A stretch of 64,000 nt of DNA, from the sequence record MF327006; one strand, given 5' to 3'. Positions 15,827 through 63,593 of the stretch are shown here, piece by piece. Source of the DNA: Shigella phage Sf20. The position numbers and the translations under genes were made by a program. A model generated the notes under the pieces. That model was not told where the DNA came from, did no database searches, and was given only the letters and a program-made list of their open reading frames with translations. The first letter of the stretch is position 1. The number at the start of each line of letters is the position of its first letter.

Positions 15827-16308
15827 TTTGCTAAATCATTGCAATATTTTAGTGCCTTAGTTTGAAATTCTGCGCTGTTAAGTTCTTCATAACGGTCATA
15901 ATCACCGTTTAATGCTGCCTTTCTTGCTTCTTGCTCTATCTGCATGTCAGACATGATAATACAGCGATCCCGTGCTTTCATCTTCTCAAGTTGTATAGAC
16001 TCTTCTTTCTGCTTGCGCAATTCTTCTTGACGCTTCTTTTCTTCTTGTGCTTTCTCTTCCCGCGCTTCTTTGATTGCATCCTTGAACATCTGCGTTTGTG
16101 GTGCTAAACCAACTTTAACGCGATCCACGTCTCGACGTTCCATTTTAGAAATAAAGCACGATTCGATCTGATCATCACTTGCATATGCTGCTTTACATTC
16201 ACGAAGCAAGAAAACCGGATCTGATTTAGCATTCATCATAGCTTCCATGTTGGCACAACCAGTAAGCATGAATGCAGCCGCAAGACCAATCAGTTTAATC
16301 ATTTTCAT
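15823..16308 (-). CDS. putative lipoprotein
   Basis: Signal peptide with lipobox LTGC near N-terminus; lysine/glutamate-rich coiled region. Confidence 0.55.
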   Translation of the reverse strand: MKMIKLIGLAAAFMLTGCANMEAMMNAKSDPVFLLRECKAAYASDDQIESCFISKMERRDVDRVKVGLAPQTQMFKDAIKEAREEKAQEEKKRQEELRKQKEESIQLEKMKARDRCIIMSDMQIEQEARKAALNGDYDRYEELNSAEFQTKALKYCNDLAK

Positions 16309-17129
16309 TTAGTCACCTCACCGAAAATTGTAAATTGTCTACGATTCTCATCGCCGAAAGATTCTACTACGTCGTTTACCTTGACGCAAGTCCCGCGCGG
16401 TAAAATTACTTCACATTCGCAAGGGTTCCATGCAATTGACCCAACAACAAAACCTTTATGATCTTTTACGTCAATTACCCATGATACATTACAAGAATGT
16501 TGCATCTTTCCGGTCATTGATTCATATCGATTCTCACAATAAAGGCTAGTGCTGTTTGATAGCCATCCTCCAAAGATGATCGGTGTCATGCTGGTCGATA
16601 CAAAGTTTTTAAAGGTAAACTCCTTATCTTCAATGATGCGCTCTATTGTCTGAATGTCAAGATGTTGACCGCGATAAAGAGTACCGTTTAACTTTTCGGT
16701 TTTATCCATGACACAATCCATCAAATCAACAATCTCTGATATCTCATCGGTCATGTCTTCTTCCCCTAAGAGAGCACCATTTACCCATTCGTATTGCTCA
16801 GACACATAATCACATATTGCATTATATTCTGCTGGGGTTATGTTGTTATGTTTGTAATGTTTGAATACATTATCTCCAAAGTCTTCGGAGTGTACTTCAT
16901 ACATCACATTAATGATTTTCTTGACAAATCCATAATCTTGTGTCTCACGCTCAAGGAAGCGGATAACCTTCACATAATCATCAAAGTTAATCTGATCGCT
17001 GATCATCTCAGTGATCATGTAACCATTAATCCCCTCAATGTCATATGTTTCGATGTAATTATCCATACGTTCCATCATTGATTCGCGTGATTCTTCTGAA
17101 AGACGAAAATCCTGTAATTTCTTGAACAT
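16305..17129 (-). CDS. ADP-ribosyltransferase (Alt/Mod family paralog)
   Basis: R-S-E triad context: LYRGQHLD, FVSTS, ECEVILPRG; closely mirrors the C-terminal catalytic region of the adjacent alt gene. Confidence 0.65.
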   Translation of the reverse strand: MFKKLQDFRLSEESRESMMERMDNYIETYDIEGINGYMITEMISDQINFDDYVKVIRFLERETQDYGFVKKIINVMYEVHSEDFGDNVFKHYKHNNITPAEYNAICDYVSEQYEWVNGALLGEEDMTDEISEIVDLMDCVMDKTEKLNGTLYRGQHLDIQTIERIIEDKEFTFKNFVSTSMTPIIFGGWLSNSTSLYCENRYESMTGKMQHSCNVSWVIDVKDHKGFVVGSIAWNPCECEVILPRGTCVKVNDVVESFGDENRRQFTIFGEVTK

Positions 17130-17207: not shown

Positions 17208-19333
17208 TTACATTTTAAATTTATCTGGCATTGCGTCTACAGATACCAGGTCAGCGATAAGCTGACGTAGAGTTGCCTTATCTGCTTTCTTACGTTCGGT
17301 TTTAGCTTCGCTAATGAAGCTGGAGAAAGACAGGTCAGAAGCAGGTTTAACAACACCTTCACGGATGAATGCATCACCGTCCGCGATCATCTCGCCAGAT
17401 TCTTGTAATGCTGCCAGTTCATTTTTGTTCATAATATGTGCCTCAATGTAATAAGTTTCTTGTGAATCCGTCGATGCCGTAGCACGAGTTACCGTATCAA
17501 AGGATAACACAACACCGCGAGGAAGTAAAATCTCGCATTCTTTGTAAGCAAATGCTTTGTTACCTACTGGCAAGACAGGGATGTTTTCCGCGCCAGCAAT
17601 GGAGAAAGCAACATTAGCGCCACCTTCACCGCGAGAGCCAGCCATAGAATCAACACCAGCAACGGCACTAGCCACGTTTGCATTCCAGCCGCCAAAAATT
17701 CACCGCGAGAGCCAGCCATAGAATCAACACCAGCAACGGCACTAGCCACGTTTGCATTCCAGCCGCCAAAAATGTTAGGTGCAAGGGAAGTGCTCACATA
17801 GTTTTTAAAGTAAAACGCTTTTTGCTTACGTGCAGTTTCCCACATTTGCGACCGGAAGTCCATACCACGATACAGAATAGTACCCGGATCAAGTTTAACA
17901 CCATAGTTAGAGAAGGCATTATCCAGTGCATCGCACATCTTGACCAATTCTTCTGGATCTGCGATTCCCTCAAACTCTTCCAGCTTACGATCAGTTAGGA
18001 AGTTGTTCATATTGATGTATGCTGCATCGGCATATTCGCTCAACACAAAACCTTCCGCGCCTGGCAGATCAAGATCAATATCTGCCATCATTTCACCCAT
18101 GTTGCTAGCAATTGCTTCAAACATACCGGAGGCAACATTACGTAGGGCATCGGTTTTAATCTGGGTGATATGACTACGCAGCATTTCAGCTTTTACATCT
18201 GCTGGCATAGACTGGTCTACTCGATCCATTGCCAAGGCGGTGATCTTGTTTTCGAATACTTCCTCGCTCATGATTTCTTTTAAGCGTTTGACCGAGGCTG
18301 CGATAACTTCCGCAGACAATGGGTCATATTGATCCTGAACTTTTACCAGTTCGCTTACTGCGTATTTTGCATCGGCTTCGCTTTCAAAAATAGTACGCAT
18401 GAAACCATAGCGAGTGATAATATCACTTGTCCAGTCATTCAGAGAACGGGCGGTTGAACGTTCTAAGGCTTGACGGTCAATCAGAGTATTAAACTGTTTC
18501 TTAGGTTCTGCTTCGGTGATATCTTCTTCCGGTTTAAGATTAATTTTTTCTGGATGATTCACATAGTCGCTGTTATAGGTCGCTTGAGTTTTCAGCATTT
18601 CTTCTTTAGTCAAACGAGATTTAGCCGCTACGCGTTGTTCTGCTTCCGCGTTTCGTTCTTCTTCTGACACAAGACTAGCCGCATACGCCTCATCTTTAGT
18701 CAGAGATTCACCAGTAGCCTTAGATACCCAGCGATCACCTAAATCACTTTCTACTTTAGTGAACAAGGATTCATCAAGTTTAATCCCTTTAATCTTATCA
18801 ATCGCCATCCCGCGACGCTTGACAACAACTAAAGCGATCTTTTTGCTGGTCATTACTTCCTGCTGGAATACTTCAAACTTCGGTGTACGACGCACCAAAC
18901 GCTCTATAACGCGCTTAACCAGTTCGGTCTTACCTTTCATGCGGGATACGTTAAAACGGAACATAACAGCGTCTAATTGAGCTTTACGGGCTGTTTCCAT
19001 AACCACATCAAAAGCACTTGCCATAACTGCAATCGGGTTATCGCCTAGACCATTTTTAAGCTGTATAATACGACCGCTTTTGTTCATTTCGCACAGTACA
19101 ACATGTGCGGTCTTGTCACCCATACGAATGATTTTAGGTGTTTTGTTGGTGAAGTTGCAAAGACGGACAATCACATCTTTATCGCGTGTCTGTACTGCAA
19201 AAAGCTGTTTAGGATTCTGCTTAGGCTTTAAGCACTGTACAGGAGCAATACTGCCAAAGTTTTCTTCCTCTTCCGTCAACAGCCATTTCTCGAAAGATTC
19301 AATCATTAGATCGTCGATTTCTAAGTTAAACAT
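17208..19333 (-). pseudogene. alt: alt ADP-ribosyltransferase, reading frame split by a 74-bp tandem duplication (ORFs 17564..19333 and 17208..17675)
   Basis: Upstream ORF ends ...FKNYVSTSLAPNIFGG...VAGVDSMAGSRGE then garbage; downstream ORF begins ASAVAGVDSMAGSRGE... and carries ECEILLPRG; removing one repeat copy gives a 684-aa protein (T4 Alt is 682 aa). Confidence 0.75.
17625..17772. repeat. perfect tandem duplication, 2 x 74 bp (17625-17698 and 17699-17772)
   Basis: Unit TTCACCGCGAGAGCCAGCCATAGAATCAACACCAGCAACGGCACTAGCCACGTTTGCATTCCAGCCGCCAAAAA repeated head-to-tail; 74 is not a multiple of 3. Confidence 0.9.
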
Positions 19334-19401: not shown

Positions 19402-19614
19402 TTATAATGCACCATCAAGCAATTGCTCTAAGGTGTATCCTGAATAGTCTTTTTCAATCAGGATATATTTTCCTACTCGTTTAATACAACCACGCATTTC
19501 AACGTATTCTGCGTAGTTGATGGTACGAGTTGTTCCATCTTCCAGTAATGCAGTACCGATTTCGTTAATGCGGTCATAAGTTACGTCGGTAATGATGATT
19601 TCGATGTTAGCCAT
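19402..19614 (-). CDS. hypothetical protein (70 aa)
   Basis: Internal ATG with AGGAG RBS directly downstream of a palindromic-spacer promoter; the ORF-track start lies inside that promoter. Confidence 0.5.
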   Translation of the reverse strand: MANIEIIITDVTYDRINEIGTALLEDGTTRTINYAEYVEMRGCIKRVGKYILIEKDYSGYTLEQLLDGAL

Positions 19615-19650
19615 TTGATACTCCTTAGTAGTTCGTTTCGGTATGTGTGC

Positions 19651-19679
19651 ATTATAGGGGATCACCGATCCCCTGTCAA
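19651..19679 (-). promoter_or_regulatory. early sigma70-type promoter with palindromic spacer (stem-loop type)
   Basis: On - strand: TTGACA, 17-nt spacer GGGGATCGGTGATCCCC (perfect palindrome), TATAAT; A-rich UP-like tract upstream. Confidence 0.55.
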
Positions 19680-19686
19680 CAACTTT

Positions 19687-20241
19687 TTAGTTATTTTTTA
19701 ATTGTTCATCTTGCAATAATGCAATCACATGCTGGCGATGTTCTTCCGATTGAGGTACACCGAAAAAGTTTGTTTTGTAGAAATACTCTAATCGGTCTTC
19801 TCGTGTGCTCTCTTCCATCATGATCGCGGGTAGTCCGAGATTTCGGAAACGTCGCTTTTCTGCTGGCGTAAAATCACTGTAATACAACATAGAATCATCA
19901 TTACAAGCAATGCTAAACTCATCCTTCATAAAGGAGAATATTGCGTTTAAACGCTGTTTACCGTCCACGATTTCGATCTCATAGCGAGAGCCATCATCAA
20001 TCTTAGCCATTGCGATAGCACCAACCGGAAAATCATTAATCAGGTTTTCAATAAACATACGTTTGTTTTCGGTGTCCCATACTAAAGGACGCTGATAATC
20101 TGGGTTCATGTTGATATAGCCATCTTCTAACCATGCTTCGTAAACAGAGATAACAAAGTTTTTAGTATTGGTATAGTAGCGGCGTTTAGGCGTTAAACGG
20201 TTCATGTTATAGTCTCCTGAATGGGTCATCACGTAAATCAA
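19687..20241 (-). CDS. DUF262 (ParB-like nuclease superfamily) domain protein
   Basis: DYQRPLVWD and IVDGKQRL motifs resemble the DUF262/GmrS N-terminal domain signature (DGQQR). Confidence 0.55.
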   Translation of the reverse strand: MIYVMTHSGDYNMNRLTPKRRYYTNTKNFVISVYEAWLEDGYINMNPDYQRPLVWDTENKRMFIENLINDFPVGAIAMAKIDDGSRYEIEIVDGKQRLNAIFSFMKDEFSIACNDDSMLYYSDFTPAEKRRFRNLGLPAIMMEESTREDRLEYFYKTNFFGVPQSEEHRQHVIALLQDEQLKNN

Positions 20242-21742: not shown

Positions 21743-21782
21743 TGTTTGATTCTCCTAAGTGGTATCTCGTCTTGATGGTTGT

Positions 21783-21811
21783 ATTGTAGGGGAGTTATCC
21801 TCCCCTGTCAA
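21783..21811 (-). promoter_or_regulatory. early promoter with stem-loop spacer
   Basis: - strand: TTGACA, spacer GGGGAGGATAACTCCCC, TACAAT. Confidence 0.5.
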
Positions 21812-21825
21812 CACTTTTTATAAAA

Positions 21826-21993: not shown

Positions 21994-22026
21994 TTTGATT
22001 CTCCTATTTCGTTTCGTTATGTGTGT

Positions 22027-22055
22027 ATTATAGGGGATCTCCCGATCCCCGTCAA
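22027..22055 (-). promoter_or_regulatory. early promoter with stem-loop spacer
   Basis: - strand: TTGACG, spacer GGGATCGGGAGATCCCC, TATAAT. Confidence 0.5.
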
Positions 22056-22069
22056 CAACTTTTTTAAAA

Positions 22070-22351
22070 TTATTCGTGATTAGTTTCGATGTTGTGCATT
22101 TTGCACCAGTTCAGCCAATCACCCAGATCCTGATAGTTAATGCTTTTATCTGCTGCCATCGTTTTTGTCTTGATACCCATATGTGCGTTATGAGTAAGCA
22201 TTTTTACAGTGAACTCAATTTTATCACCTTTAGCTTTAACATCAACCAGTTTGGTCCACTGGCTACCAGCGCCGCGAATGTTCATACCAACGATGTTTCC
22301 GATGTATGCTTCTTTGTTTTTCAGGATTTCGGTTGCTTTGATGAATTTCAT
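22070..22351 (-). CDS. hypothetical protein (93 aa)
   Basis: ORF behind its own promoter and RBS. Confidence 0.45.
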   Translation of the reverse strand: MKFIKATEILKNKEAYIGNIVGMNIRGAGSQWTKLVDVKAKGDKIEFTVKMLTHNAHMGIKTKTMAADKSINYQDLGDWLNWCKMHNIETNHE

Positions 22352-22372
22352 TTTTGATTCTCCAGTTCGTTT

Positions 22373-22401
22373 CGGTATGTGTGTATTATGCTATGTTCTT
22401 A
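22373..22401 (-). promoter_or_regulatory. early sigma70-type promoter
   Basis: - strand: TTGACA, 17 nt, CATAAT, A-tract upstream. Confidence 0.45.
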
Positions 22402-22421
22402 CTTTGGTGTCAACAACTTTT

Positions 22422-22691
22422 TTAGATATTTTCAGAAATAAATTTTAAAACTTGACGTAAATGTTTCTCATCTTTGATAGTCGCCGGAAGTTCTTCTTTT
22501 ACTTCCTGTGCAAGATAGATATTTCCGTTCCAAGTGAAAGATCCGTCTTCGTTTACGCGATAGCTGAACATCCACTCGCAATCATTTTCGATTTCATATA
22601 CACACAGAAGGGTGTAATCGTTAAAGCTATTGATTTCAAGGTCGAAGCCGTGACGTTTTGCAAAGTTGGTAGTGGTTTTAGTCAGAGCCAT
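22422..22691 (-). CDS. hypothetical protein (89 aa)
   Basis: ORF with AGGAGAATCAAACA RBS. Confidence 0.45.
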   Translation of the reverse strand: MALTKTTTNFAKRHGFDLEINSFNDYTLLCVYEIENDCEWMFSYRVNEDGSFTWNGNIYLAQEVKEELPATIKDEKHLRQVLKFISENI

Positions 22692-25760: not shown

Positions 25761-25804
25761 TTTTGATTCTCCTATATCTCGTTGGTATGTGTGCATTATA
25801 GGGG

Positions 25805-25833
25805 ATCGGTGATCCCCTGTCAACAACTTTATA
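25805..25833 (-). promoter_or_regulatory. early promoter with palindromic spacer
   Basis: - strand: TTGACA, GGGGATCACCGATCCCC, TATAAT. Confidence 0.55.
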
Positions 25834-26905: not shown

Positions 26906-26939
26906 AATTGATTCTCCTAGTTCGTTTCGGTATGTGTGT

Positions 26940-26969
26940 AGTATAGGGGAGTTTAACCTCCCCTGTCAA
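26940..26969 (-). promoter_or_regulatory. early promoter with stem-loop spacer
   Basis: - strand: TTGACA, GGGGAGGTTAAACTCCCC, TATACT. Confidence 0.5.
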
Positions 26970-26977
26970 CAACTTTT

Positions 26978-27289: not shown

Positions 27290-27334
27290 TTTTGATTCTC
27301 CGTTTAAGAAAGTGTGTTTCGTTTTGATGTGTGT

Positions 27335-27363
27335 AGTATAGGGGATACGTGATCCCCTGTCAA
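27335..27363 (-). promoter_or_regulatory. early promoter with palindromic spacer
   Basis: - strand: TTGACA, GGGGATCACGTATCCCC, TATACT. Confidence 0.5.
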
Positions 27364-27376
27364 CAACTTTTTTGAA

Positions 27377-35507: not shown

Positions 35508-35540
35508 CTTGATACTCCTTAGTTGTTTTGGTATGGGAGT

Positions 35541-35569
35541 ATCTTACTACTCCCGTGATATGCTGTCAA
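35541..35569 (-). promoter_or_regulatory. early promoter overlapping stem-loop GGGAGTAGTAAGATACTCCC
   Basis: TTGACA on - strand with hairpin in the spacer/-10 region; same hairpin recurs at ~25541 and ~62470. Confidence 0.4.
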
Positions 35570-35794
35570 CTGCTTTTTTATGCAACCGCAAACATCAACA
35601 TTTGAACATTCTTGGCTGTCTGGCTTTCAAAGTTCTGACATTCTTTGATAATGTCCTCTACTTTCTCGCCGGAGATCTCCGCGTAAGTTTCGATTGCCAT
35701 TTTCAGTACCGCGTCAAAGTTGTTCATTTGATTCTCCTTAAAGTGTATTTCGTTTCGATGGGGGTATATTACTACCCCCGTTTCATGCTGTCAA

Positions 35795-36013
35795 CTACTT
35801 TTTAATGACAAGTTCGAATTTTGCTACCTTGCGTCCTCGTTTATTGAAAGCAACCCACGGACGGTTTTCAATGTAGAACAATTCTTCACCAATAATGAAT
35901 ACTGGCTGATTGTAAAGGCGACCCATCAGGTCACGCTGGCGAATGGTAGTAGATTCGTATACTTCGCCTACTACAAAGTGCTTGCTGATAGAGTCGGTGC
36001 AAGTAAATTTCAT
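35795..36013 (-). CDS. hypothetical protein (72 aa)
   Basis: ORF with promoter cassette upstream. Confidence 0.4.
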   Translation of the reverse strand: MKFTCTDSISKHFVVGEVYESTTIRQRDLMGRLYNQPVFIIGEELFYIENRPWVAFNKRGRKVAKFELVIKK

Positions 36014-36082
36014 TTTGATTCTCCTTTGTTTCGTTTCGATGGGGGTATATTACTACCCCCGTTATTCAGTGTCAACTACTTT

Positions 36083-36301
36083 TTACTTGTTGTATTCATT
36101 CCACCATTGGGTTAGCTTATCAATTATTTTTGTGTTTCTATCCAACTTCTCCCACCGTTTTCTAGGGTTTATCAACCGGAATAGGTAAGGTGTACTTGTT
36201 AAGTGAACTCGGTCAATGTAGTGATTGATGTACTGCTTTTCGATTCTAAGTTTCATCTTTTTACGATGAAAATATGCAATGACTTGTTCTTCTGTTTCCA
36301 T
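36083..36301 (-). CDS. hypothetical protein (72 aa)
   Basis: ORF with promoter cassette upstream. Confidence 0.4.
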   Translation of the reverse strand: METEEQVIAYFHRKKMKLRIEKQYINHYIDRVHLTSTPYLFRLINPRKRWEKLDRNTKIIDKLTQWWNEYNK

Positions 36302-38559: not shown

Positions 38560-38627
38560 AATAAAATCCTCACTTGTTTTTGATGGTTGTATTATAGCGG
38601 GGATTTCTCCCCGCGTCAACACTTATT

Positions 38628-40871
38628 TTACAGCTTGCAAGATGAGCACTCGCTAGCGTCTTCCGTACCATCTGCACCGTCGCGAACGTTCGCATAATAC
38701 AGGGTTTTCAGACCGTAATATTGAGCAAACAACATATCATCTAACACATCAGCAATATCGACTTTACCAGTCTTATAAGTGCTTGGATCGTATGATGTAT
38801 TGGAACTAATCGCCTGATCCACAAACTTCTGCATGATCGCTGCCAGTGTCAGATAGGGCTTGTTACCTTTCTTGATCAGTGTCCAAAGCAGGTCAATAAC
38901 ATCAGCATTATTCTCTACGTTCGGAATAACCTGATTAAATTGCCCTTCTTTCGATCCTTTAACCGATACAATCCCGCGAGGCGGTTCAATACCGTTTGTG
39001 CTGTTAGATACCTGAGAAGACGACTCACAAGGCATCAGAGCCGAAAGCGTACTATTACGAATGCCATATTTTTTCAGGTCTTCGCGCAGTTCTTCCCAAT
39101 CCATCTCATACACAGGATCAACCAGTTCATCTACTGTCTTTTTGTACCAGTCGATAGGCAGTTCACCGCGTCCATAACGTGTTTCGTGCATCAGTTCGCA
39201 AGCACCCTTCTCTTTAGCCAGTTGCACACTAGCCTTAATCAGAGCATATTGCAAGCGTTCAAACGTTTTATGCGTAAACTCGTTAGCGTCTTCATATGTG
39301 AAGAAATTATCCGCTAGATATGACGCAAAGTTAGTCACACCAACACCCAGAGAGCGACGTTTTTTGGCTGTCAGAGCTTGTTCTACAGGATAATCCTGAT
39401 AATCTAACAGGTTGTCAAGTGCACGCACCATAACCATAGCAATGCGTTCTACTTCTTCCATGTTTTCGATATCGAAATTACCTAAAACATATGCTGCCAA
39501 AGTACATAGGCTAATTTCTGAATCATCACGACCCATCGGTTTTGTAGGCAGAGCAATTTCACAACACAGGTTAGATTGTTTAATCGGTGCTACATTACGA
39601 ATAAACGCCCCGTGATTGTTCATGTTGTCTGTGAACGTTGGGTAGATTCGACCAGTGTTAAAACGTTCAATTGCCACCGCTAAAAACAGGTCTTCGGCTT
39701 TAACACGAGTTTTACGAACACTCGGATCTTTTTCCAGTTTTTCGTAAAGCTGGCGGAAACCTTCCTCATCTCGGAAGTATAGATCCCACAACAAGCCACC
39801 TGCAATATCTGGACTAAACAGAGTAATGTAATCCCGTTTAAGGAATCGCTCTACCATCAGGTTATTAATCTGTACGCCGTAGTCAAGATGGCGAATGCGG
39901 TTATCTTCCACGCCCTTATTGTTCTTTAACACAATCAGACTTTCAAACTCTAAATGCCACATTGGGTAATAGAGTGTCGCTGCCCCGCCACGAATACCGC
40001 CTTGTGAGCATGACTTAACGGCAGTCTGAAAATGTTTCCAGAATGGGATAACGCCAGTATGACGAACTTCACCATGCCCGATCTTAGATCCTTCCGCGCG
40101 AATCATGCCAGCGTTGATACCGATACCAGCACGCTTGCTAATATACTTAATGATTGCATTTGCGGTTTCATTAATACCCTGCAATGAGTCATCACTTTCA
40201 ATCACCACACACGAACTAAATTGGCGTGTTGGAGTACGCACACCCGCCATAATCGGAGTAGGCAGAGAGATTTGCTTATTCGCAACAGCATTATAAAAAT
40301 CAATCACATGTTCAAGTCGATTTTCTGTCTCTTCTTGATGCAAGCACATACCGATCAGCATATACGCAAATTGCGGTGTTTCAATGATTTTCTTAGTGCT
40401 GCGATCCTGAACAAGATATTTCTCTTTTAACTGCATCGCACCAGCATAGGTCATTTTAAAATCAAGTTTATGGTCGATGAATTTCTCCAGATATTCCACT
40501 TCTTCACGGGAATACTTTTGCAGAATTTCGCGATCATATTTTCCGGTTGCAATATTACGCTCAATATGGCTGTAAAAATCAATCGGTTGGAATTGACCGT
40601 ATACTGATTTGCGAAGCGCGAACATTGCAAGGTTACTTGCTACATATTGATAATCGGGTGTTTCTACAGTGATGTTATCTGCGGCGACCTTAATCAATAC
40701 TTTCTGGATATCATTGGTAGACATACCTTCTGTCAGAAGTGGTTCAACCATATCAAACAATTCATATGGATCAACGTTATGACCTTCGGCTGCCGCTTCC
40801 AGAATTTTCATCACTTTTTCTTTTTCAAACGGAACAGTCAGACCGGAAGACTTAACAACATTTTTAATCAT
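38628..40871 (-). CDS. nrdA: ribonucleotide reductase large subunit
   Basis: 747 aa; N-terminal ATP-cone, catalytic NLCCEI and C-terminal Cys pair CSSC. Confidence 0.9.
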   Translation of the reverse strand: MIKNVVKSSGLTVPFEKEKVMKILEAAAEGHNVDPYELFDMVEPLLTEGMSTNDIQKVLIKVAADNITVETPDYQYVASNLAMFALRKSVYGQFQPIDFYSHIERNIATGKYDREILQKYSREEVEYLEKFIDHKLDFKMTYAGAMQLKEKYLVQDRSTKKIIETPQFAYMLIGMCLHQEETENRLEHVIDFYNAVANKQISLPTPIMAGVRTPTRQFSSCVVIESDDSLQGINETANAIIKYISKRAGIGINAGMIRAEGSKIGHGEVRHTGVIPFWKHFQTAVKSCSQGGIRGGAATLYYPMWHLEFESLIVLKNNKGVEDNRIRHLDYGVQINNLMVERFLKRDYITLFSPDIAGGLLWDLYFRDEEGFRQLYEKLEKDPSVRKTRVKAEDLFLAVAIERFNTGRIYPTFTDNMNNHGAFIRNVAPIKQSNLCCEIALPTKPMGRDDSEISLCTLAAYVLGNFDIENMEEVERIAMVMVRALDNLLDYQDYPVEQALTAKKRRSLGVGVTNFASYLADNFFTYEDANEFTHKTFERLQYALIKASVQLAKEKGACELMHETRYGRGELPIDWYKKTVDELVDPVYEMDWEELREDLKKYGIRNSTLSALMPCESSSQVSNSTNGIEPPRGIVSVKGSKEGQFNQVIPNVENNADVIDLLWTLIKKGNKPYLTLAAIMQKFVDQAISSNTSYDPSTYKTGKVDIADVLDDMLFAQYYGLKTLYYANVRDGADGTEDASECSSCKL

Positions 40872-43463: not shown

Positions 43464-44309
43464 TTACGCTGTCAACTCTTTTTCAAAAGATTTTACGATA
43501 TACATTAAATTTCTAATTTCGGACGGTGGGATTGTCTCTGTCCACCCGTCCGGCATAACTTTTTGCGATACGTGGCGTGTTTTATTACTAAGTTTTTGTC
43601 GAACAATACCCTCTAATTTTAGGGGTATGTTTCCATCTTTAGTTGTTAACGTATGGAATATAAAGTGACGAACGGAAGACACGCTGGATTGCTGTTTCAT
43701 CCTTTCCTCGGCTTTTTTGTTAGTGATTCCGAACTTATACCCGACAATACAACCCCAATTATCAACCAGTTTTTGTATATAAAAGGTTCCTGGTTTTCTT
43801 TTATCATAACCTCCTTTTTGAGTGGGACATTTCGGACACTGCATATCATCTAAAGATGCGACATATTTGCCATGAACGCAGCAATCCATACTTAGATTCT
43901 TTTCTCTTGCATTAATATACCCATTAATAAATCCATTGGATTTTACTTTTTCATTATGAGAACAAAATTCATCAATTCGTATATTTGCTGATATAACATT
44001 TTTTCTTCTCATTCGTTCCATCCAACATTCTTGACAACCACCTCCCCCATTTTTAAGTATATCGATAGTGGTTAATTTTTGCTTGTGGTTTGGATTTAAT
44101 CCACAAGCAATTTTAATTTTAGATCGTACACCAGACCACTCATAGAATCCCAAATATATCATATCTCCGCTTTTTATTTTTGGCGAATTTAATGCTTCAT
44201 TTTCAATCTCAATTGGAGATTTTGAATTATAGTAATGGATATATTCTATATCTTTAGCAAATCTGGTGTTCATTTTGTCCTCCGTTGTTTCTATGCTTGC
44301 ATTATACAT
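43464..44309 (-). CDS. T5orf172/GIY-YIG-like domain protein with Cys-rich N-terminal region
   Basis: C-terminal GTFYIQKL...VGYKFGITNKKAEERMK...GWTETIPP resembles T5orf172 (MUG113) domain; N-terminal CQEC and CPKC pairs. Confidence 0.45.
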   Translation of the reverse strand: MYNASIETTEDKMNTRFAKDIEYIHYYNSKSPIEIENEALNSPKIKSGDMIYLGFYEWSGVRSKIKIACGLNPNHKQKLTTIDILKNGGGGCQECWMERMRRKNVISANIRIDEFCSHNEKVKSNGFINGYINAREKNLSMDCCVHGKYVASLDDMQCPKCPTQKGGYDKRKPGTFYIQKLVDNWGCIVGYKFGITNKKAEERMKQQSSVSSVRHFIFHTLTTKDGNIPLKLEGIVRQKLSNKTRHVSQKVMPDGWTETIPPSEIRNLMYIVKSFEKELTA

Positions 44310-48457: not shown

Positions 48458-51400
48458 ATGGCAGATTTTTCTCAACATTTCAAGGCCACATTTGGCTTTG
48501 ACGCTGGTAATGAAAAGGTCGTCAATGTAGCATTGGCTGATAAGAATGTCAACACCGATGCGGTCAACGTTGAATTTTTCAATTACCATAATGGTATTAC
48601 TCAGTATGACACAACTCGCGGTTATGATCAATACGGAACTACAATCTATCAAAACCGTCCGTATTATGCAAAAGAAGATATCACAAAGCCAGCAGGTGAT
48701 TTTGACCCGACTAAATGGCAAGCACTGCGCACGGACCCACGTTGGGATTATATTGCAGCAACTTCCGGTGATACTCCTTTAAAGTCTGGTGATTATATCG
48801 CAGCAGATGGTCAATTTGCAAACTTGACTTTCTCTATGCCAACTAAACCAGCAGAGGGAGACACTATAACAGTAAAAGATATCGGTGGCAAGTGTGGTGT
48901 TAACGAATTATCGTTCTTGAGTTCAGGACATGAGTTTTACCATAACGGTAATGTGTATAACCGAAAATGGTATTGCACTACCCCGTATGCAATGAACTAT
49001 TTCATCTTTGTTCGTAATCGTTGGCATGTTTATCAGACGGGAACAGAGCCGCGCGGTGTGTACGCACAGCCAGCGATTGATGCTATTCAAATGCAGAATG
49101 GTGATCAGGTATTTCGTCGTAGTTCGTTGGGTAATATTACCTTAGTGCTTCCTAAGTTTGCCAACAATGGCGACATGATCCAGACTACAGACCTTGACGG
49201 ATTAACCGCAACCAACCACGTTACGGTTAAAGTTCATGAGCACGCAGAAGAACAATCAATTGGCACGTCCGGTCTAAAAGAGATTATCGGTAAGCGTAGC
49301 GGTCATGGTGTATTCATCTTTGACAAGACGGAAAACTTATGGCGTTTGTGGGATGGTGATCAGTCTGTTCGTCTTAAACCGATCATCGATGACACTCGCT
49401 TGCAACCTAATAGCTATGTTGCTGTATTTGGTGATCGTGATGTTACTCTGACGCTGCCGACCAATGTCGAGCCGGGTGATCGTATTCAAGTTTCTATGCA
49501 GTATATGCACGGAAACCAGAATTGCCGTATTATCACCGCCACAGAGGATACAAAAATCCTTATGCCGAAAAACATGGTTCAGTTTCCGAAGCGTAGCGAG
49601 TACCCATTCAACGGGACCGACACATGGAAGGAAGTGTCTGAATTGTCGTTCAATGCGGCTAGTGATTATGTACCTTATCTGGAGTTCTCTTATTCAGAAG
49701 GTGATGATGGTAAGAAATACTGGTTGGTGGCACATGCTCACCCGATTGTAGAACGAGTAGATCCGACTCGTAAAGATCGTGTTGGTGTAATTGCACTGGC
49801 TACCCAGGATGAAACAAACAAAAACCATGAAGAGAATCCTAGCGACGAAGTTGCGGTAACACCAAAAATGCTGGCTAATAAAACCGCCAACGAAACTCGA
49901 CGCGGTATTGCTCGCATTGCGACTCAAGCGGAAACGCATCAAGATACTGGTTCCAACTTCCTGGATGATGTTATCGTTACGCCTAAAAAGTTAAATGACT
50001 GTGTTGCTACCGAAGCCCGTCGTGGCGTGATGGAAATTGCAACCCAGCACGAAACCAATGAAGGTTTAGACGATACCCGCGCTATTACTCCTAAGAAATT
50101 AGAAGAACGTCGCGCTTCCGAAGATCTCGCTGGTATTGCTGAAATTGTTCAGGCTGGCGGTAGTGCTGCCGCTCGACGTGGCGAAGCTGGTACAGGGATC
50201 TATAACATCAACGACCATGTTAAAATTGTTACGCCACAAAACATCAACGAAGTCAAGGCGACCGAAACTTCCCGTGGTGTTGGCTATCTGGCAACTGACG
50301 CGGAAGTGCAAGGGGCTACAGAATCAACCCCGCAAGATGCTTTACTAATCACGACTCGCACGCTAACGAAACGTACTGCTACCGAATCGCGCACTGGTAT
50401 CGCTGAAATTGCAACTCAGGAAGAAACAAACTTAGGTCAAAGTGATAGCCATATCATCACGCCTAAAAAGCTGCATACTCGCCGCGCAACGGAAACTTTA
50501 CATGGTTTAGCAGAAATTGCAACTCAACCGGAATTTGACGCAGGTCTTGACGATGCTCGCATTTCTACCCCATTGAAGATTAAAACCTTCTTTGAGAATG
50601 CACAGCGTTTGAAAGTAGATCCGACTCAGGGGCTTAACCTTACTGGTGATTTGTGGCAAGGTATCATGATCAGCGGTCTGGATGCAACCGAAGACACAAA
50701 AGGTGTCGCTAAAGTTGCTACTACTCAGCTTACGGATGCTGGTCAAGATGATACTACAATCATCACGCCTAAAAAGCTGCAAGGCAAAAAGGCAACCGAA
50801 GGTAAAGAAGGTATTATCCGAGTTGGTACTCAAGCCGAAACCGTGGCTGGTGCACTGGCTAATGTAGCAATTTCTCCGAAGAACTTCAAATATGTTGTTC
50901 AGACAGAGGATACATGGAAAGCAACCGAATCGCGTCGTGGCTTCTTGAAAGTTGCTACTCAGGAAAACTGTTTTGTTGGTGATAATCTGCAAGGTTCTAC
51001 TCAAGAACTAGGAAACTACCAGCATGACGGAATTGCTGTTACCCCGAAAGGATTAAACTACGCACTTGCTAATTTCTTACCTAAGATGGCAACCGCTCAG
51101 AATAGTTTGAAATTGGGTAACGTAGAGGCCGCTAAATGGGCGCGTAGAGACATTGACCAGACCATAGAGAGCAATTACACGTTTAATAAAAAAGTTAACG
51201 TGAAGGGCGATTTAGAGTGCTTAAAATCAGGTTCCTTTGAAACTCTGTCTGTGACTAAGAACTCGACCGATGTTCCGAGTAATGGTCATCTGGTGTTGGG
51301 TGAGCGTGGAGTTGACGGTCACACCGGAATTACTCTGCATGGCACAACCGCATCGGAAGGCATGAAAAACTCTTGGTCGATTATCGTTGGTGGTACGGGA

Positions 51401-52530
51401 ACAGCGCAAGTTGTTGATAGTGATGCTATCGCTTTCGGTAAAATCAATGATGGTGGAGTCGTTGAGCATTACGCCTTTGCTATGAAACACAATGGCGACG
51501 CGACAGCATATAGAGACTTTATTGCAGGTCGTAACCTGTATGCGAAACAAGGCGGTTTATACATTGTTGACCAGTCTAATCCGGCAATGACTCGTTCCCC
51601 AGATGGTATGCTGAATATCGGTCACGGTGGAAGTGTTAACATCAAGGCAGGTCATCAAACGTTAACTACAGAGATCGCCGGACAGAAATATCAGATCGTA
51701 CACGCAGGAAACGCTGACGAAGTTCTTAACCGTCAGTTTGTTAAGAATGCTGGCGATACAATGGTCGGTAAGCTGACTATGGATAATGCGCCTATTGTTT
51801 CTGTTAAGCATGAAGCTAGCGCGGCAACCGCTCCGGCAATCGGTAACATCGGTTTCTGGAATATGCGAGTTACTACCCAGAACATCAAAGAAACTTATCC
51901 AGAGAAGAAAAACGGTACTCTGATGCAATGGGGTACTGACGCGGACGGGCTTACCCAGCTTTGGTCCCCTGATGGTACTCATAAACATTATATCCGTTCC
52001 GGTACTGGCGGGGACAGAAATATCAGATCGTACACGCAGGAAACGCTGACGAAGTTCTTAACCGTCAGTTTGTTAAGAATGCTGGCGATACAATGGTCGG
52101 TAAGCTGACTATGGATAATGCGCCTATTGTTTCTGTTAAGCATGAAGCTAGCGCGGCAACCGCTCCGGCAATCGGTAACATCGGTTTCTGGAATATGCGA
52201 GTTACTACCCAGAACATCAAAGAAACTTATCCAGAGAAGAAAAACGGTACTCTGATGCAATGGGGTACTGACGCGGACGGGCTTACCCAGCTTTGGTCCC
52301 CTGATGGTACTCATAAACATTATATCCGTTCCGGTACTGGCGGTCAATGGACCGCATGGGGTGAAATTTACACCAAACAGAACAAACCTACCGCTCAGGA
52401 AATCGGGGCAGTAGTTGCAGAAGGTGGTTTAATGAACTCTATGACGGTTCGTGATTGGATCAAAGTTGGTAATGTTAAAATCATCGCCAATAATCTGACT
52501 CGTACCGTAGACTTTATCTGGGAAGACTAA
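48458..52530 (+). pseudogene. 34: long tail fiber proximal subunit gp34, reading frame interrupted by a 332-bp tandem duplication (ORFs 48458..52108 and 52093..52530)
   Basis: 1216-aa ORF ends ...GTHKHYIRSGTGG + out-of-frame tail; next ORF repeats MVGKLTMDNAP...HYIRSGTGG then continues; deleting one repeat copy restores ~1246 aa (T4 gp34 is 1289 aa). Confidence 0.75.
51680..52343. repeat. perfect tandem duplication, 2 x 332 bp (51680-52011 and 52012-52343)
   Basis: Both copies read identically by eye from GGACAGAAATATCAGATCG... to ...CCGTTCCGGTACTGGCGG; 332 is not a multiple of 3. Confidence 0.85.
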
Positions 52531-55466: not shown

Positions 55467-58406
55467 ATGGCAGATTTAAGCAGAATCCAATTTAAACGTA
55501 CTAGCACTAAAGGCCGTCGACCTGATGCTGGTACGATGAATCCGGGGGAATTGGCAATCAACCTTGCGGATCAATATCTTCTTACTAAAAATGATTCCGG
55601 TGCTATTATCAATTTAAGTTGTCCTCCGGTTTATGACCGCGATGTTACAATGGCAGGTAAGGTTAAAGGTAATAATTATATCTTAAGTAAAACCGCCAAC
55701 TATCTGGAAGATCAGACAGCGAGAGACCTTAACTACTTTGGTGCTTTCCGTACCAATGGTCTTGACGGTTTTCTCGAACTCACGCTAAACGTTCCTCATT
55801 CTTCTGGTGTTCAGCATGGTCGAGGATTTACTTTCCAGTATGGACACACAGGAAACCGTGTAGAAACTTATGGTTATAATAAAGAAGGACAAAAAGCATT
55901 TAGCTATAAAATGTATCATGAAGGTGATAAACCTACCCCATCGGAATTGAACGTTTATAGCAAACAAGAAGTTGACCGTATGTTTGTTAAAACCGTTAAA
56001 CTTGCTACAGTTCCTGTTGATATCGTTGACGGTTATTTTAAATTAGCAACTGCAATGATTCCGCAAAACGGTCGTAGTGTATTTTTCCGTATTCATGGTG
56101 GTAACGGATATAACGTTACCGCATACGATCAAGTTGATATTGTAGAAATTGTTATTCGCAGTGGAAATAATCGTCCTAAAGGTGTTAACGTTATTGCATA
56201 CCGACGAAATACAAACAAATCATTTGATGTTTTGGCTGTTAATACTTCTGGTGATAACTATGATATCTACGTGAAATATCAGCGTTACACTGATAACGTT
56301 ATTGTTGAATTTGGTAAAAGTGTTGATGTTGATCTGGTAGTCCATGACGTTCCCGACTTTGTTGTTGATCGTCCTGCTGGCGATAATGTTATTGGCGGTC
56401 GCGCGGTAACTCTTTTCAACACAGAAAATAAACGTGGTGTGTTGAGTTTTGACGATAACACACAAAATAGTTATGATATTGTTCACTTGAGTAATGATAA
56501 AGGTACTGGTCGGAAATATATTCGTAAATTCCGCAGTAACTATAATGAAATGATCTGGCATGAGACGGTTCAAGGTTCTACCTATCGACTCGCCACGGGT
56601 AGTACCGATGCTCAGGAGATTCTAACCGTTGAATCTGTTAGCTCAATTGCTGGAACTCATAAAGGTAATATTATTTCTGGACGTATGCTGTTAAATGGCG
56701 GTAGTAATGTTATTACCTTGCGGCGTCCTGCTGGTCAATCCAACCATATTGCGTTTCAAGATAATCGTACTGGAGATATTACCCGTCAAGGATGGATCGG
56801 TTATGCCAATGCTGATACTAACATTTTTGAATGGTATAGTGATGTAGGTGGCAGTTCTATTCGTCAACATATTGACGGACAGATCGAACTTGCAACCGGT
56901 AACACAAAACGCGTTTATACTAACGCTCAATTCATCTCAATGAATAGCGACGCCTACCGCATGCTCTACGGTAATTATGGTGCATTCTGGCGTAATGACG
57001 GCGTTAAAGTTTATCTTCTTTCTACTGCCGAAAATGATAAATTGGGCGGGTGGAATGCCTATCGTCCATTCATTTATGATTTAACTTCCGGTAACGTTCA
57101 ATTAGGCGGTGATGGTAACGAAGAAGCATTAACGTTAGAACGTGCTTCTCGTGCCGCTCGATTTAGTAATGACGTTTACATTAAGAAAGGGCTTTTGACT
57201 TTCGACGCTGGTCGTGCTGGATCTCGCGATTATATTCGATTTAATCATTGGGGTGATAGCAATAATGCTCGTGATAACGTTTTGTACATAGAAGATAGTC
57301 AAGGCCGACATTTTAGTACAGAACGTGCGATGGGTACTGGTGCTCTTAAAGCATACTTCTTAGGCGATCTTGAAGTCGGTGGTAAGTTTACTTGGGGTAA
57401 AAATACAGCTACATCTAGCTTTAATATCCGTGCATGGGGTGCTGATGCTCGTAAACAGGTATTAGAATGTGCTGATGAAAGCGGTTGGCATTGGTATACC
57501 CAACGACCGGGCGGTCCTGGTACTGATGCAATTGAATTTTCTATTAACGGTACGGTTAAGCCTAAAGCAATTCATACTGGCGGCAATATCACTATCAACG
57601 GTGCTGATATTGAGTTTAAACGCGCTGGCAATAAGCATTTATGGTTTAGAGATCCAAACGGATTAGAATTGGGTTTGATTTATTGTGATGATGCTGGTGT
57701 TATTCGTGTCCGTGGTGAGAAGTCGACCGAAGTGTGGAAATTCTCGGCAAAACAGATTCATTTAGAAACGGGTACTGCTGGTAACGGTGTTGGTTTAATC
57801 CGTGGTGCAGTTGGTGGTGGTGCGTGGACTCAATGGAGAGACCGTGGTACTGGCTTACAGGTTGACTGCCAACAATCAGAAAACTCAGCACACAACATAT
57901 GGCGAGCGACTCATCAAGGTAAGTACCATCTTGCAGCAATGGGTGTTCATGCATCTGGTGGTAGTGTTGCTAATACCGTTGTTCGCTTACATGTTCATGA
58001 CTCAAACTATGATTTCACTGCTGTTGGTGACTTCACCGCAGGTCGTAACGGTTCGTTTAACGATGTGTACATTCGTTCTGATGCTCGCCTTAAAATCAAC
58101 AAGGAAGAGTATAAAGAGAATGCCACCGATAAAGTTAATCGCTTAACTGTATACACCTATGACAAGGTTAAATCTTTAACCGACCGTACTGTCATTGCTC
58201 ATGAAGTTGGCATTATCGCACAGGATCTTGAGAAAGAATTGCCGGAAGCAGTAACAACCTCGAAGATCGGAGACGGTGATACACCAGAAGAGATCTTAAC
58301 AATTTCTAACTCTGCTGTCAACGCTCTTTTAATTAAGGCGTTTCAGGAAATGAGCGAAGAATTGAAAGCCGTTAAAGCTGAACTAGCGGAACTTAAAAAG
58401 AATTAA
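55467..58406 (+). CDS. 37: long tail fiber distal subunit / receptor-binding protein gp37 with C-terminal intramolecular-chaperone-like domain
   Basis: N-terminus MADLSRIQFKRTSTKGRRPDAG...GELAINL matches T4 gp37; C-terminal ~110 aa begins SDARLK and ends in a coiled coil, resembling peptidase S74 chaperone domains. Confidence 0.8.
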   Translation: MADLSRIQFKRTSTKGRRPDAGTMNPGELAINLADQYLLTKNDSGAIINLSCPPVYDRDVTMAGKVKGNNYILSKTANYLEDQTARDLNYFGAFRTNGLDGFLELTLNVPHSSGVQHGRGFTFQYGHTGNRVETYGYNKEGQKAFSYKMYHEGDKPTPSELNVYSKQEVDRMFVKTVKLATVPVDIVDGYFKLATAMIPQNGRSVFFRIHGGNGYNVTAYDQVDIVEIVIRSGNNRPKGVNVIAYRRNTNKSFDVLAVNTSGDNYDIYVKYQRYTDNVIVEFGKSVDVDLVVHDVPDFVVDRPAGDNVIGGRAVTLFNTENKRGVLSFDDNTQNSYDIVHLSNDKGTGRKYIRKFRSNYNEMIWHETVQGSTYRLATGSTDAQEILTVESVSSIAGTHKGNIISGRMLLNGGSNVITLRRPAGQSNHIAFQDNRTGDITRQGWIGYANADTNIFEWYSDVGGSSIRQHIDGQIELATGNTKRVYTNAQFISMNSDAYRMLYGNYGAFWRNDGVKVYLLSTAENDKLGGWNAYRPFIYDLTSGNVQLGGDGNEEALTLERASRAARFSNDVYIKKGLLTFDAGRAGSRDYIRFNHWGDSNNARDNVLYIEDSQGRHFSTERAMGTGALKAYFLGDLEVGGKFTWGKNTATSSFNIRAWGADARKQVLECADESGWHWYTQRPGGPGTDAIEFSINGTVKPKAIHTGGNITINGADIEFKRAGNKHLWFRDPNGLELGLIYCDDAGVIRVRGEKSTEVWKFSAKQIHLETGTAGNGVGLIRGAVGGGAWTQWRDRGTGLQVDCQQSENSAHNIWRATHQGKYHLAAMGVHASGGSVANTVVRLHVHDSNYDFTAVGDFTAGRNGSFNDVYIRSDARLKINKEEYKENATDKVNRLTVYTYDKVKSLTDRTVIAHEVGIIAQDLEKELPEAVTTSKIGDGDTPEEILTISNSAVNALLIKAFQEMSEELKAVKAELAELKKN

Positions 58407-62433: not shown

Positions 62434-62507
62434 AATATATTCCTCAGTGTTTTGTCTTGATGGGAGTATCTTACTACTCCCTTAATCCGGTGTCAACTAC
62501 TTTTAAA

Positions 62508-62768
62508 TTATTTTCGCCATTCACCGGAAACAATAAAGTTTGTAAAGTGAACGTGGTCCGTGATAACGTCATTAAGTACCATATGCGGATATGCTTTAGT
62601 GTAATCACGTTTACGATCAGTCATCCAACCAACGAAAGTCGGTGCAAAGTACGGCACACCGTCAGATGATGCCATATTAAACCATTTATCAGCCATAAAT
62701 GCAGCCGCCCTAAGATTTTTAATTGAAGTAGTGCGACTAATTTCAAAAACTTTATCGGTAAAATTCAT
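62508..62768 (-). CDS. hypothetical protein (86 aa)
   Basis: ORF behind promoter cassette at ~62470-62500. Confidence 0.4.
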   Translation of the reverse strand: MNFTDKVFEISRTTSIKNLRAAAFMADKWFNMASSDGVPYFAPTFVGWMTDRKRDYTKAYPHMVLNDVITDHVHFTNFIVSGEWRK

Positions 62769-63028
62769 TTTAAGCCCCCCGCTCGTGCATTAATACGCAT
62801 TTTCTGCATAGCCATGATCTGGTTTACTGCTTCTTCTTTACGTTCTTGCGTGATAACGTGACCAGATTCCGTAAACTCTCCCGCAACTTCTTCTACGATC
62901 TCGCGAACTTGAGAACGTCCAAAGATGCGGTTTCCTTCGTAGCTCATAAATTCAGTCACTACTTGCTCGATAGATTTCATGTGATTCTCCTTCTTTCGTT
63001 TGGTATGGGAGTATAATACTACTCCCAT
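62765..63028 (-). CDS. hypothetical protein (87 aa)
   Basis: ORF behind promoter cassette at ~63015-63045. Confidence 0.4.
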   Translation of the reverse strand: MGVVLYSHTKRKKENHMKSIEQVVTEFMSYEGNRIFGRSQVREIVEEVAGEFTESGHVITQERKEEAVNQIMAMQKMRINARAGGLK

Positions 63029-63044
63029 TTCTTTACGTCAACAA

Positions 63045-63206
63045 CTATTTTAAATTATTTTCGACCTTCACCCATTCCGCGTATTCTTGCGCGGCTACTT
63101 TCGGATTTAGTCCGTCTTCGTACATTGCATCAAGTAATTCTTTGTCGGTGGGCTTATACCCTAGATAAGCCTCCACCTGATTTTTCCAAATTTTATACCA
63201 GTTCAT
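63045..63206 (-). CDS. hypothetical protein (53 aa from internal Met)
   Basis: Start chosen to abut the upstream gene stop; the ORF-track start has no RBS. Confidence 0.3.
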   Translation of the reverse strand: MNWYKIWKNQVEAYLGYKPTDKELLDAMYEDGLNPKVAAQEYAEWVKVENNLK

Positions 63207-63483: not shown

Positions 63484-63593
63484 CTTTGATTCTCCTTTTG
63501 TTTGGTATGTGTGTATTATGCGAGGCTGGATTCGTGAAGTCAACAACTTTTTAAAATAAAAAAGCCGACCACAAGGATCGGCTTAATAATCAG

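Follow-up and report, generated by a model that had tools for sequence, protein, structure and literature searches.

Exact tandem duplications that break alt and gene 34 in the deposited sequence of Shigella phage Sf20 are probably assembly or finishing errors

Background

The Alt protein of bacteriophage T4 is an ADP-ribosyltransferase (ART) that is packaged in the capsid and modifies Arg265 of one of the RNA polymerase alpha subunits; the gene is dispensable in T4. T4 Alt (682 aa) shares with the Alt of Shigella phage Sf20 both membership of phrog_802 and the PF03496 domain with its R, STS and ExE motifs, though the two are only distantly similar in sequence. The Alt of phage RB49 (RB49p184, NP_891755.1) occupies the same locus as that of Sf20, amongst the same neighbours (gp54, a small ORF, a 274-aa ART and then alt), and is uninterrupted, whereas the alt gene of Sf20, as written in the deposited sequence, has 74 additional bp inside the ART domain.

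T4-type phages are known to undergo tandem duplication, and the described examples, such as the rII duplications and the amplification of tifA under toxIN selection, are kilobase-scale, span genes, involve short homologies and are selected for gene dosage. The repeats that we describe in Sf20 resemble these in lying head-to-tail in a T4-type genome, but are small, intragenic, frame-breaking and without microhomology. A different kind of repeat is produced by assembly itself. Assemblers are documented to leave identical overlaps at phage contig ends, and these must be taken off before a sequence is re-ordered. The false direct terminal repeats left by k-mer assemblers, for whose removal tools such as apc.pl exist, are exact, as in Sf20, originate from circular or permuted genomes and are unrelated to gene structure. 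The Sf20 repeats differ from them in being internal and tandem, in being two in number and in having lengths, 74 and 332 bp, that are not standard values of k, and a model based on overlapping contig ends needs an extra concatenation or re-orientation step to account for them.

We report an analysis of both repeats in Sf20, of the genes that they interrupt and of the corresponding sites in related phages, and we weigh the possibility that they are features of the phage against that of an error in the record.

Results and discussion

The sequence and its exact repeats

The window, by which we mean the whole stretch of DNA that was analysed, comprises 64,000 nt of one strand of the Shigella phage Sf20 record MF327006. 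By its similarity to described genomes it is a segment of a Krischvirus genome (RB49-like, Straboviridae): it is ~98% identical to RB49, vB_Eco_SAP (SAP) and TB34, and the closest match in the phage collection, across the large stretches searched, has an identity of ~98.5%. Approximately 108 annotated RB49 proteins were mapped onto the stop-to-stop ORFs of the window, and 58 related Krischvirus records from the phage collection were used as the comparison set.

In the whole 64 kb, Tandem Repeats Finder (TRF) detects just two arrays, with periods of 74 and 332 bp. When the window was scanned exhaustively for exact tandem duplications of period 15-3000 bp, the same two repeats were the only ones; the search for further exact tandem duplications that a sequence-only reading of this DNA had proposed thus finds none in the 64 kb scanned. 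The two repeats are not the product of chance, since none of five mononucleotide shuffles of the window contained an exact tandem duplication of 15-400 bp period. Neither 74 nor 332 is divisible by 3, the remainder being 2 in both cases.

The 74-bp repeat and the alt gene

The gene alt lies on the minus strand. TRF places the repeat within it at 17625-17773 (period 74, 2.0 copies, 100% matches, no indels), and direct string comparison shows that the units at 17625-17698 and 17699-17772 match base for base, head-to-tail, just as the sequence-only reading had described them. The register of the repeat can be extended by 1 base on the right and by none on the left. In the orientation of the gene, the unit at 17699-17772 (copy 2 in plus-strand order) is the upstream copy, and in it lie the final authentic codons of the N-terminal alt fragment; the unit at 17625-17698 (copy 1) is the downstream copy and encodes ...NANVASAVAGVDSMAGSRGE at the start of the C-terminal fragment. 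The BLAST alignment against RB49 breaks exactly at 17699, with 74 bases of the subject being re-used.

As written, the repeat splits alt into ORFs of 589 and 155 aa, both on the minus strand. The former (17564-19333) begins at the authentic Alt start, carries 545 authentic residues (Alt residues 1-545) up to ...VAGVDSMAGSRGE / ...NANVASAVAGVDSMAGSRGE and then runs out of frame into a tail of 44 aa. The latter (17208-17675; Alt residues ~529-683) opens at an internal GTG, upstream of which there is no clear Shine-Dalgarno sequence, restarts at ...VAGVDSMAGSRGE, repeats ...ASAVAGVDSMAGSRGE and then runs on as far as the authentic C-terminus. ORF analysis thus bears out the earlier account of an upstream ORF that loses its frame and a downstream ORF that restarts with the same peptide and carries ECEILLPRG. 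The YRG (Arg) motif at 17864-17872 (residue 488) and the STS motif at 17786-17794 (residue 514) both lie in the 589-aa ORF and the ExE motif (ECE, 17532-17540) in the 155-aa ORF, so that the Arg and Ser-Thr-Ser motifs are indeed separated from the catalytic Glu in the record, and R, STS and ExE are united in one polypeptide only when one 74-bp copy is removed. Deletion of one copy gives an Alt of 683 aa that is 99.56% identical to RB49 Alt in a gapless 683/683 alignment; the expectation that a single copy would restore the full-length protein was therefore correct, though the length predicted for it, 684 aa, was not, the measured 683 aa being that of RB49 Alt.

The break at residue 545 is inside the single catalytic domain of the protein, PF03496 (ADP-ribosyltransferase exoenzyme). 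Against this profile the restored protein of 683 aa reaches 37.2 bits, above the cut-off of 23.4, with the match spanning residues 425-610. By itself the N-terminal fragment reaches 26.3 bits, matching no more than profile positions 19-126 of 196, and for the C-terminal fragment on its own there was no match to any Pfam family. Both fragments match phrog_802 (Alt-like RNA polymerase ADP-ribosyltransferase), the N-terminal one at positions 2-530 of 674 (E = 8.7e-145) and the C-terminal one at positions 540-674 (E = 2.5e-33), and the C-terminal fragment is 100% identical to RB49 Alt residues 521-683. With the repeat collapsed, the gene belongs to the Alt family on the evidence of its domain and motifs and of its synteny and colinearity with RB49 alt. 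Directly downstream, and untouched by the duplication, lies an ADP-ribosyltransferase paralogue of 274 aa (16305-17129, minus strand), which is intact, has its own YRG, STS and ECE motifs, matches PF03496 (E = 4.3e-16) and also phrog_15144, and is 100% identical to RB49p183.

These results bear on the idea of a functional split, in which the two alt fragments are expressed separately and reassemble, or a programmed frameshift gives an active enzyme with altered regulation. Beyond the presence in the sequence of two overlapping ORFs there is nothing that speaks for such an arrangement, which we consider hardly conceivable: the break is within the one PF03496 domain, leaving a C-terminal fragment that has no Pfam match, the restart would have to use the internal GTG, and the arrangement is found in no relative. 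Nor could a -1 or +1 frameshift repair a shift of +74 without the duplicated 25 residues being translated as well. A functional split ART and a programmed frameshift were accordingly rejected on the domain break, the lack of a ribosome-binding site and the lack of precedent in relatives.

The 332-bp repeat and gene 34

The sequence-only reading had counted two exact, frame-breaking duplications in the window, and the second of these is the 332-bp repeat at 51680-52343 (TRF: period 332, 2.0 copies, 100% matches), which lies in gene 34, encoding the proximal subunit of the long tail fibre, on the plus strand. Its units, 51680-52011 and 52012-52343, are identical strings, the register of the repeat extends by 0 bases to the left and 0 to the right, and the BLAST alignment against RB49 breaks at 52011/52012. 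Gene 34 as written (48458-52108, plus strand) encodes 1185 authentic residues and an out-of-frame tail of 31 aa; its product is without the last 61 residues of gp34 and matches phrog_972 at positions 1-1169 of 1246. The displaced C-terminal end is found in an ORF of 145 aa (52093-52530, plus strand; phrog_972 positions 1077-1246). When one 332-bp copy is deleted, a gp34 of 1246 aa results, which aligns without gaps to RB49 gp34 with 99.2% identity.

The segment that is lost from gp34 aligns with the C-terminal part of T4 gp34, reaching residue 1288 of its 1289. Since this conserved C-terminal cap is missing and gene 34 is essential in T4, we infer that the truncation would be lethal and incompatible with a propagating phage. 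In the crystal structure of T4 gp34 the C-terminal end forms a capping sheet, where gp35/gp36 and the distal half-fibre are likely to make contact (PMC5537660). Elsewhere in the window gp35 and gp36 are intact, and gp37 is full length and divergent. Gene 37 (distal tail fibre; 55467-58406, plus strand) encodes 979 aa with 73% amino-acid identity to RB49, and its closest nucleotide match in the phage collection is at 90% (E26, ECD7); on this comparison gp37 appears to be a distinct receptor-binding variant that is not otherwise recorded.

One rival reading is a mixed origin, in which the 74-bp duplication is a genuine, tolerated loss of alt function and the 332-bp duplication an artefact. It draws on the facts that alt is non-essential in T4 and its paralogue here intact, and that gene 34 cannot be lost. 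The two lesions nevertheless share every one of their unusual properties and one cause is more economical than two, and we regard a mixed origin as very unlikely.

Comparison with relatives and public data

In the comparison with the alt genes of related phages that the sequence-only reading had proposed, all of the 58 Krischvirus records (58/58) proved to be single-copy at the alt site, with spans ~74 bp shorter than the query. The same is true of the gene 34 site, where the spans in 58/58 records are ~332 bp shorter. One IMG/VR contig is also single-copy at the alt site. The novel junctions created by the repeats read …GCCGCCAAAAA/TTCACCGCGAG… and …GTACTGGCGG/GGACAGAAAT…, and neither is present in IMG/VR or in JGI metagenome contigs; for IMG/VR the denominator is small, only one contig there having the exact single-copy sequence of the alt site that was used as query. 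Exact look-ups of three proteins of the window, namely the 589-aa Alt fragment, the 1216-aa product of gene 34 as written and the intact 979-aa gp37, gave no match.

The RB49 genes located in the window are all full length, with the exception of alt, gene 34 and one small hypothetical ORF, of which residues 1-98 of 106 are aligned at 93% identity and the C-terminus is divergent. Small indels relative to RB49 are present and break no other mapped gene. Apart from the two repeats, nothing in the 64 kb clearly breaks a gene. Sequence of generally poor quality, with homopolymer frameshifts, was rejected as an explanation, the other mapped genes being full length bar the one small ORF. A chimera of two phages was likewise left without support: in 1-kb bins, divergence from RB49 and SAP is ~1-2% on either side of each junction and shows no switch, a test that is uninformative where both pieces come from the same phage.

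Some differences from RB49 of another kind were seen. Three small RB49 ORFs (114793-114972, 117423-117899 and 158754-158909 in RB49) have no counterpart in the window, where the corresponding sites are at ~19614-19690, ~22066-22075 and ~62509-62778; these absences look like gene-content mosaicism at sites flanked by intergenic cassettes. The cassettes form families of 50-80 nt between small early genes, and each consists of a GC-rich stem-loop, then TGTCAACAAC and a run of T. They are located at 19629-19688, 21761-21820, 22005-22064, 22363-22422, 25773-25832, 26918-26977, 27313-27372, 35510-35580, 35726-35804, 36007-36085, 38580-38630, 62437-62507, 62982-63052 and 63493-63552, and resemble the early promoter/stem-loop cassettes of RB49-type phages. 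Next to gene 32, an ORF of 281 aa (43464-44309, minus strand) is found where RB49 has the 485-aa endonuclease RB49p240, to which it is ~38% identical; it matches only the C-terminal half of phrog_681 (endonuclease) and no Pfam family, and would seem to be a swapped or truncated mobile endonuclease gene.

A small exact duplication does occur in one other Krischvirus record. In vB_Eco_SAP (OZ034687.1, ~39625-39784; 19826-19985 of the locus) there is a perfect 79-bp x2 tandem duplication, which is private to that record: its sibling TB34, with flanks that are 100% identical, and all other relatives have one copy each. It is similar in size to the Sf20 repeats and, like them, made up of exact copies, but what it duplicates is a complete intergenic promoter/stem-loop cassette lying ~0.5 kb upstream of alt, and it breaks no conserved gene, only a hypothetical CDS of 39 aa (TRBSAP_052) being annotated across it. 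The duplication might be genuine and compatible with viability, or it might be an artefact. A literature search on TB34 and SAP found no mention of this duplication, and a search for tandem duplications in Krischvirus found no papers.

Real duplications or errors in the record

If both Sf20 duplications were real, they would represent two recent events of illegitimate recombination or template switching during the recombination-dependent replication of a T4-type phage, with Alt knocked out and gp34 truncated, and the stock would be a mutant or a defective sub-population kept by complementation. That such phages do undergo tandem duplication, and that the SAP record holds a private and exact one of 79 bp, lends this some plausibility, and the loss of alt could be borne, with a paralogue that is 100% conserved adjoining it. 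We nonetheless judge it unlikely. A gp34 without its conserved C-terminal cap should abolish infectivity and a consensus should not be that of a defective genome; the duplications are missing from 58/58 relatives and from the metagenome and virome collections; and a direct repeat of 332 bp would be expected to disappear quickly from a T4-type phage by homologous recombination. Duplication by slippage or illegitimate recombination would, further, leave microhomology at the junctions, of which there is only 0-1 bp (0/1 bp for the 74-bp repeat, 0/0 bp for the 332-bp repeat).

Both repeats are, in our assessment, probably untrimmed overlaps, or the result of a similar finishing error, in the deposited sequence and not features of the phage. 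The genomes of T4-type phages are circularly permuted and are therefore assembled into contigs with overlapping ends. Were such pieces concatenated, or the sequence re-oriented, without their common ends being trimmed, each join would leave an exact head-to-tail repeat of arbitrary length, placed without regard to genes. Two joins would leave two repeats, which here would flank a piece of 34.3 kb (17699-52011). The same picture would result from an in-silico edit or from the erroneous expansion of a site during polishing or local reassembly. An origin at joins is inferred from the character of the repeats: an artefact is favoured because the copies are exact, are private to the MF327006 record and restore the reading frames when collapsed, and because one of them strikes an essential structural gene at its conserved C-terminal cap. 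A single cause is favoured because the lesions have in common their exactness, the lack of microhomology, the remainder of 2 and their uniqueness to this record. Junction homologies of 1 and 0 bp also fit arbitrary contig ends better than they fit slippage or illegitimate recombination.

There are counter-points to an origin by error. The lengths of 74 and 332 bp are not typical SPAdes k values; a de Bruijn overlap at k = 75, for which 74 is k-1, was considered and set aside as a numerical coincidence, the 332-bp repeat not fitting it. Divergence from relatives is unchanged at both junctions, so that the joins bear no independent mark. A real knockout of alt would be tolerable, the gene being dispensable in T4 and an intact paralogue lying next to it, and, as small exact duplications are found in Krischvirus records (SAP), real ones might occur.

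The sequence-only reading had proposed that the two duplications share a cause, being either a sequencing or assembly problem or the mark of a duplication-prone genome. The first of these is favoured by our results. The second is unsupported, because an essential tail-fibre gene is cut, microhomology is lacking, 58/58 relatives are single-copy and the rest of the 64 kb is unbroken bar one small ORF. In its fullest form it would describe a Krischvirus with unstable, homology-independent tandem duplications that are frequent enough to dominate the consensus, propagated with a truncated gp34 and no Alt, perhaps maintained by complementation at high multiplicity or by rapid reversion through recombination between the copies. 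This strikes us as distinctly improbable; if true, it would mean that a virion enzyme and a fibre gene could be reversibly turned on and off.

Conclusions

The split of alt in the Sf20 record is probably not a real biological feature, that is, neither a new split enzyme nor a sign of a duplication-prone genome. The underlying genome most likely has one copy of each unit, with an intact alt encoding 683 aa and an intact gene 34 encoding 1246 aa, and the phage almost certainly possesses an ordinary alt and gene 34 like those of RB49.

The biological weight of the finding is therefore small and its weight lies with data quality, in that from the record as it stands alt would be annotated as split or as a pseudogene, and the tail-fibre gene as truncated. 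Such misannotation could mislead comparative and host-range studies, and any screening of therapeutic phages that depends on structural genes being intact. An exact tandem repeat that gives back a reading frame when collapsed is a cheap and general flag for untrimmed joins in phage assemblies.
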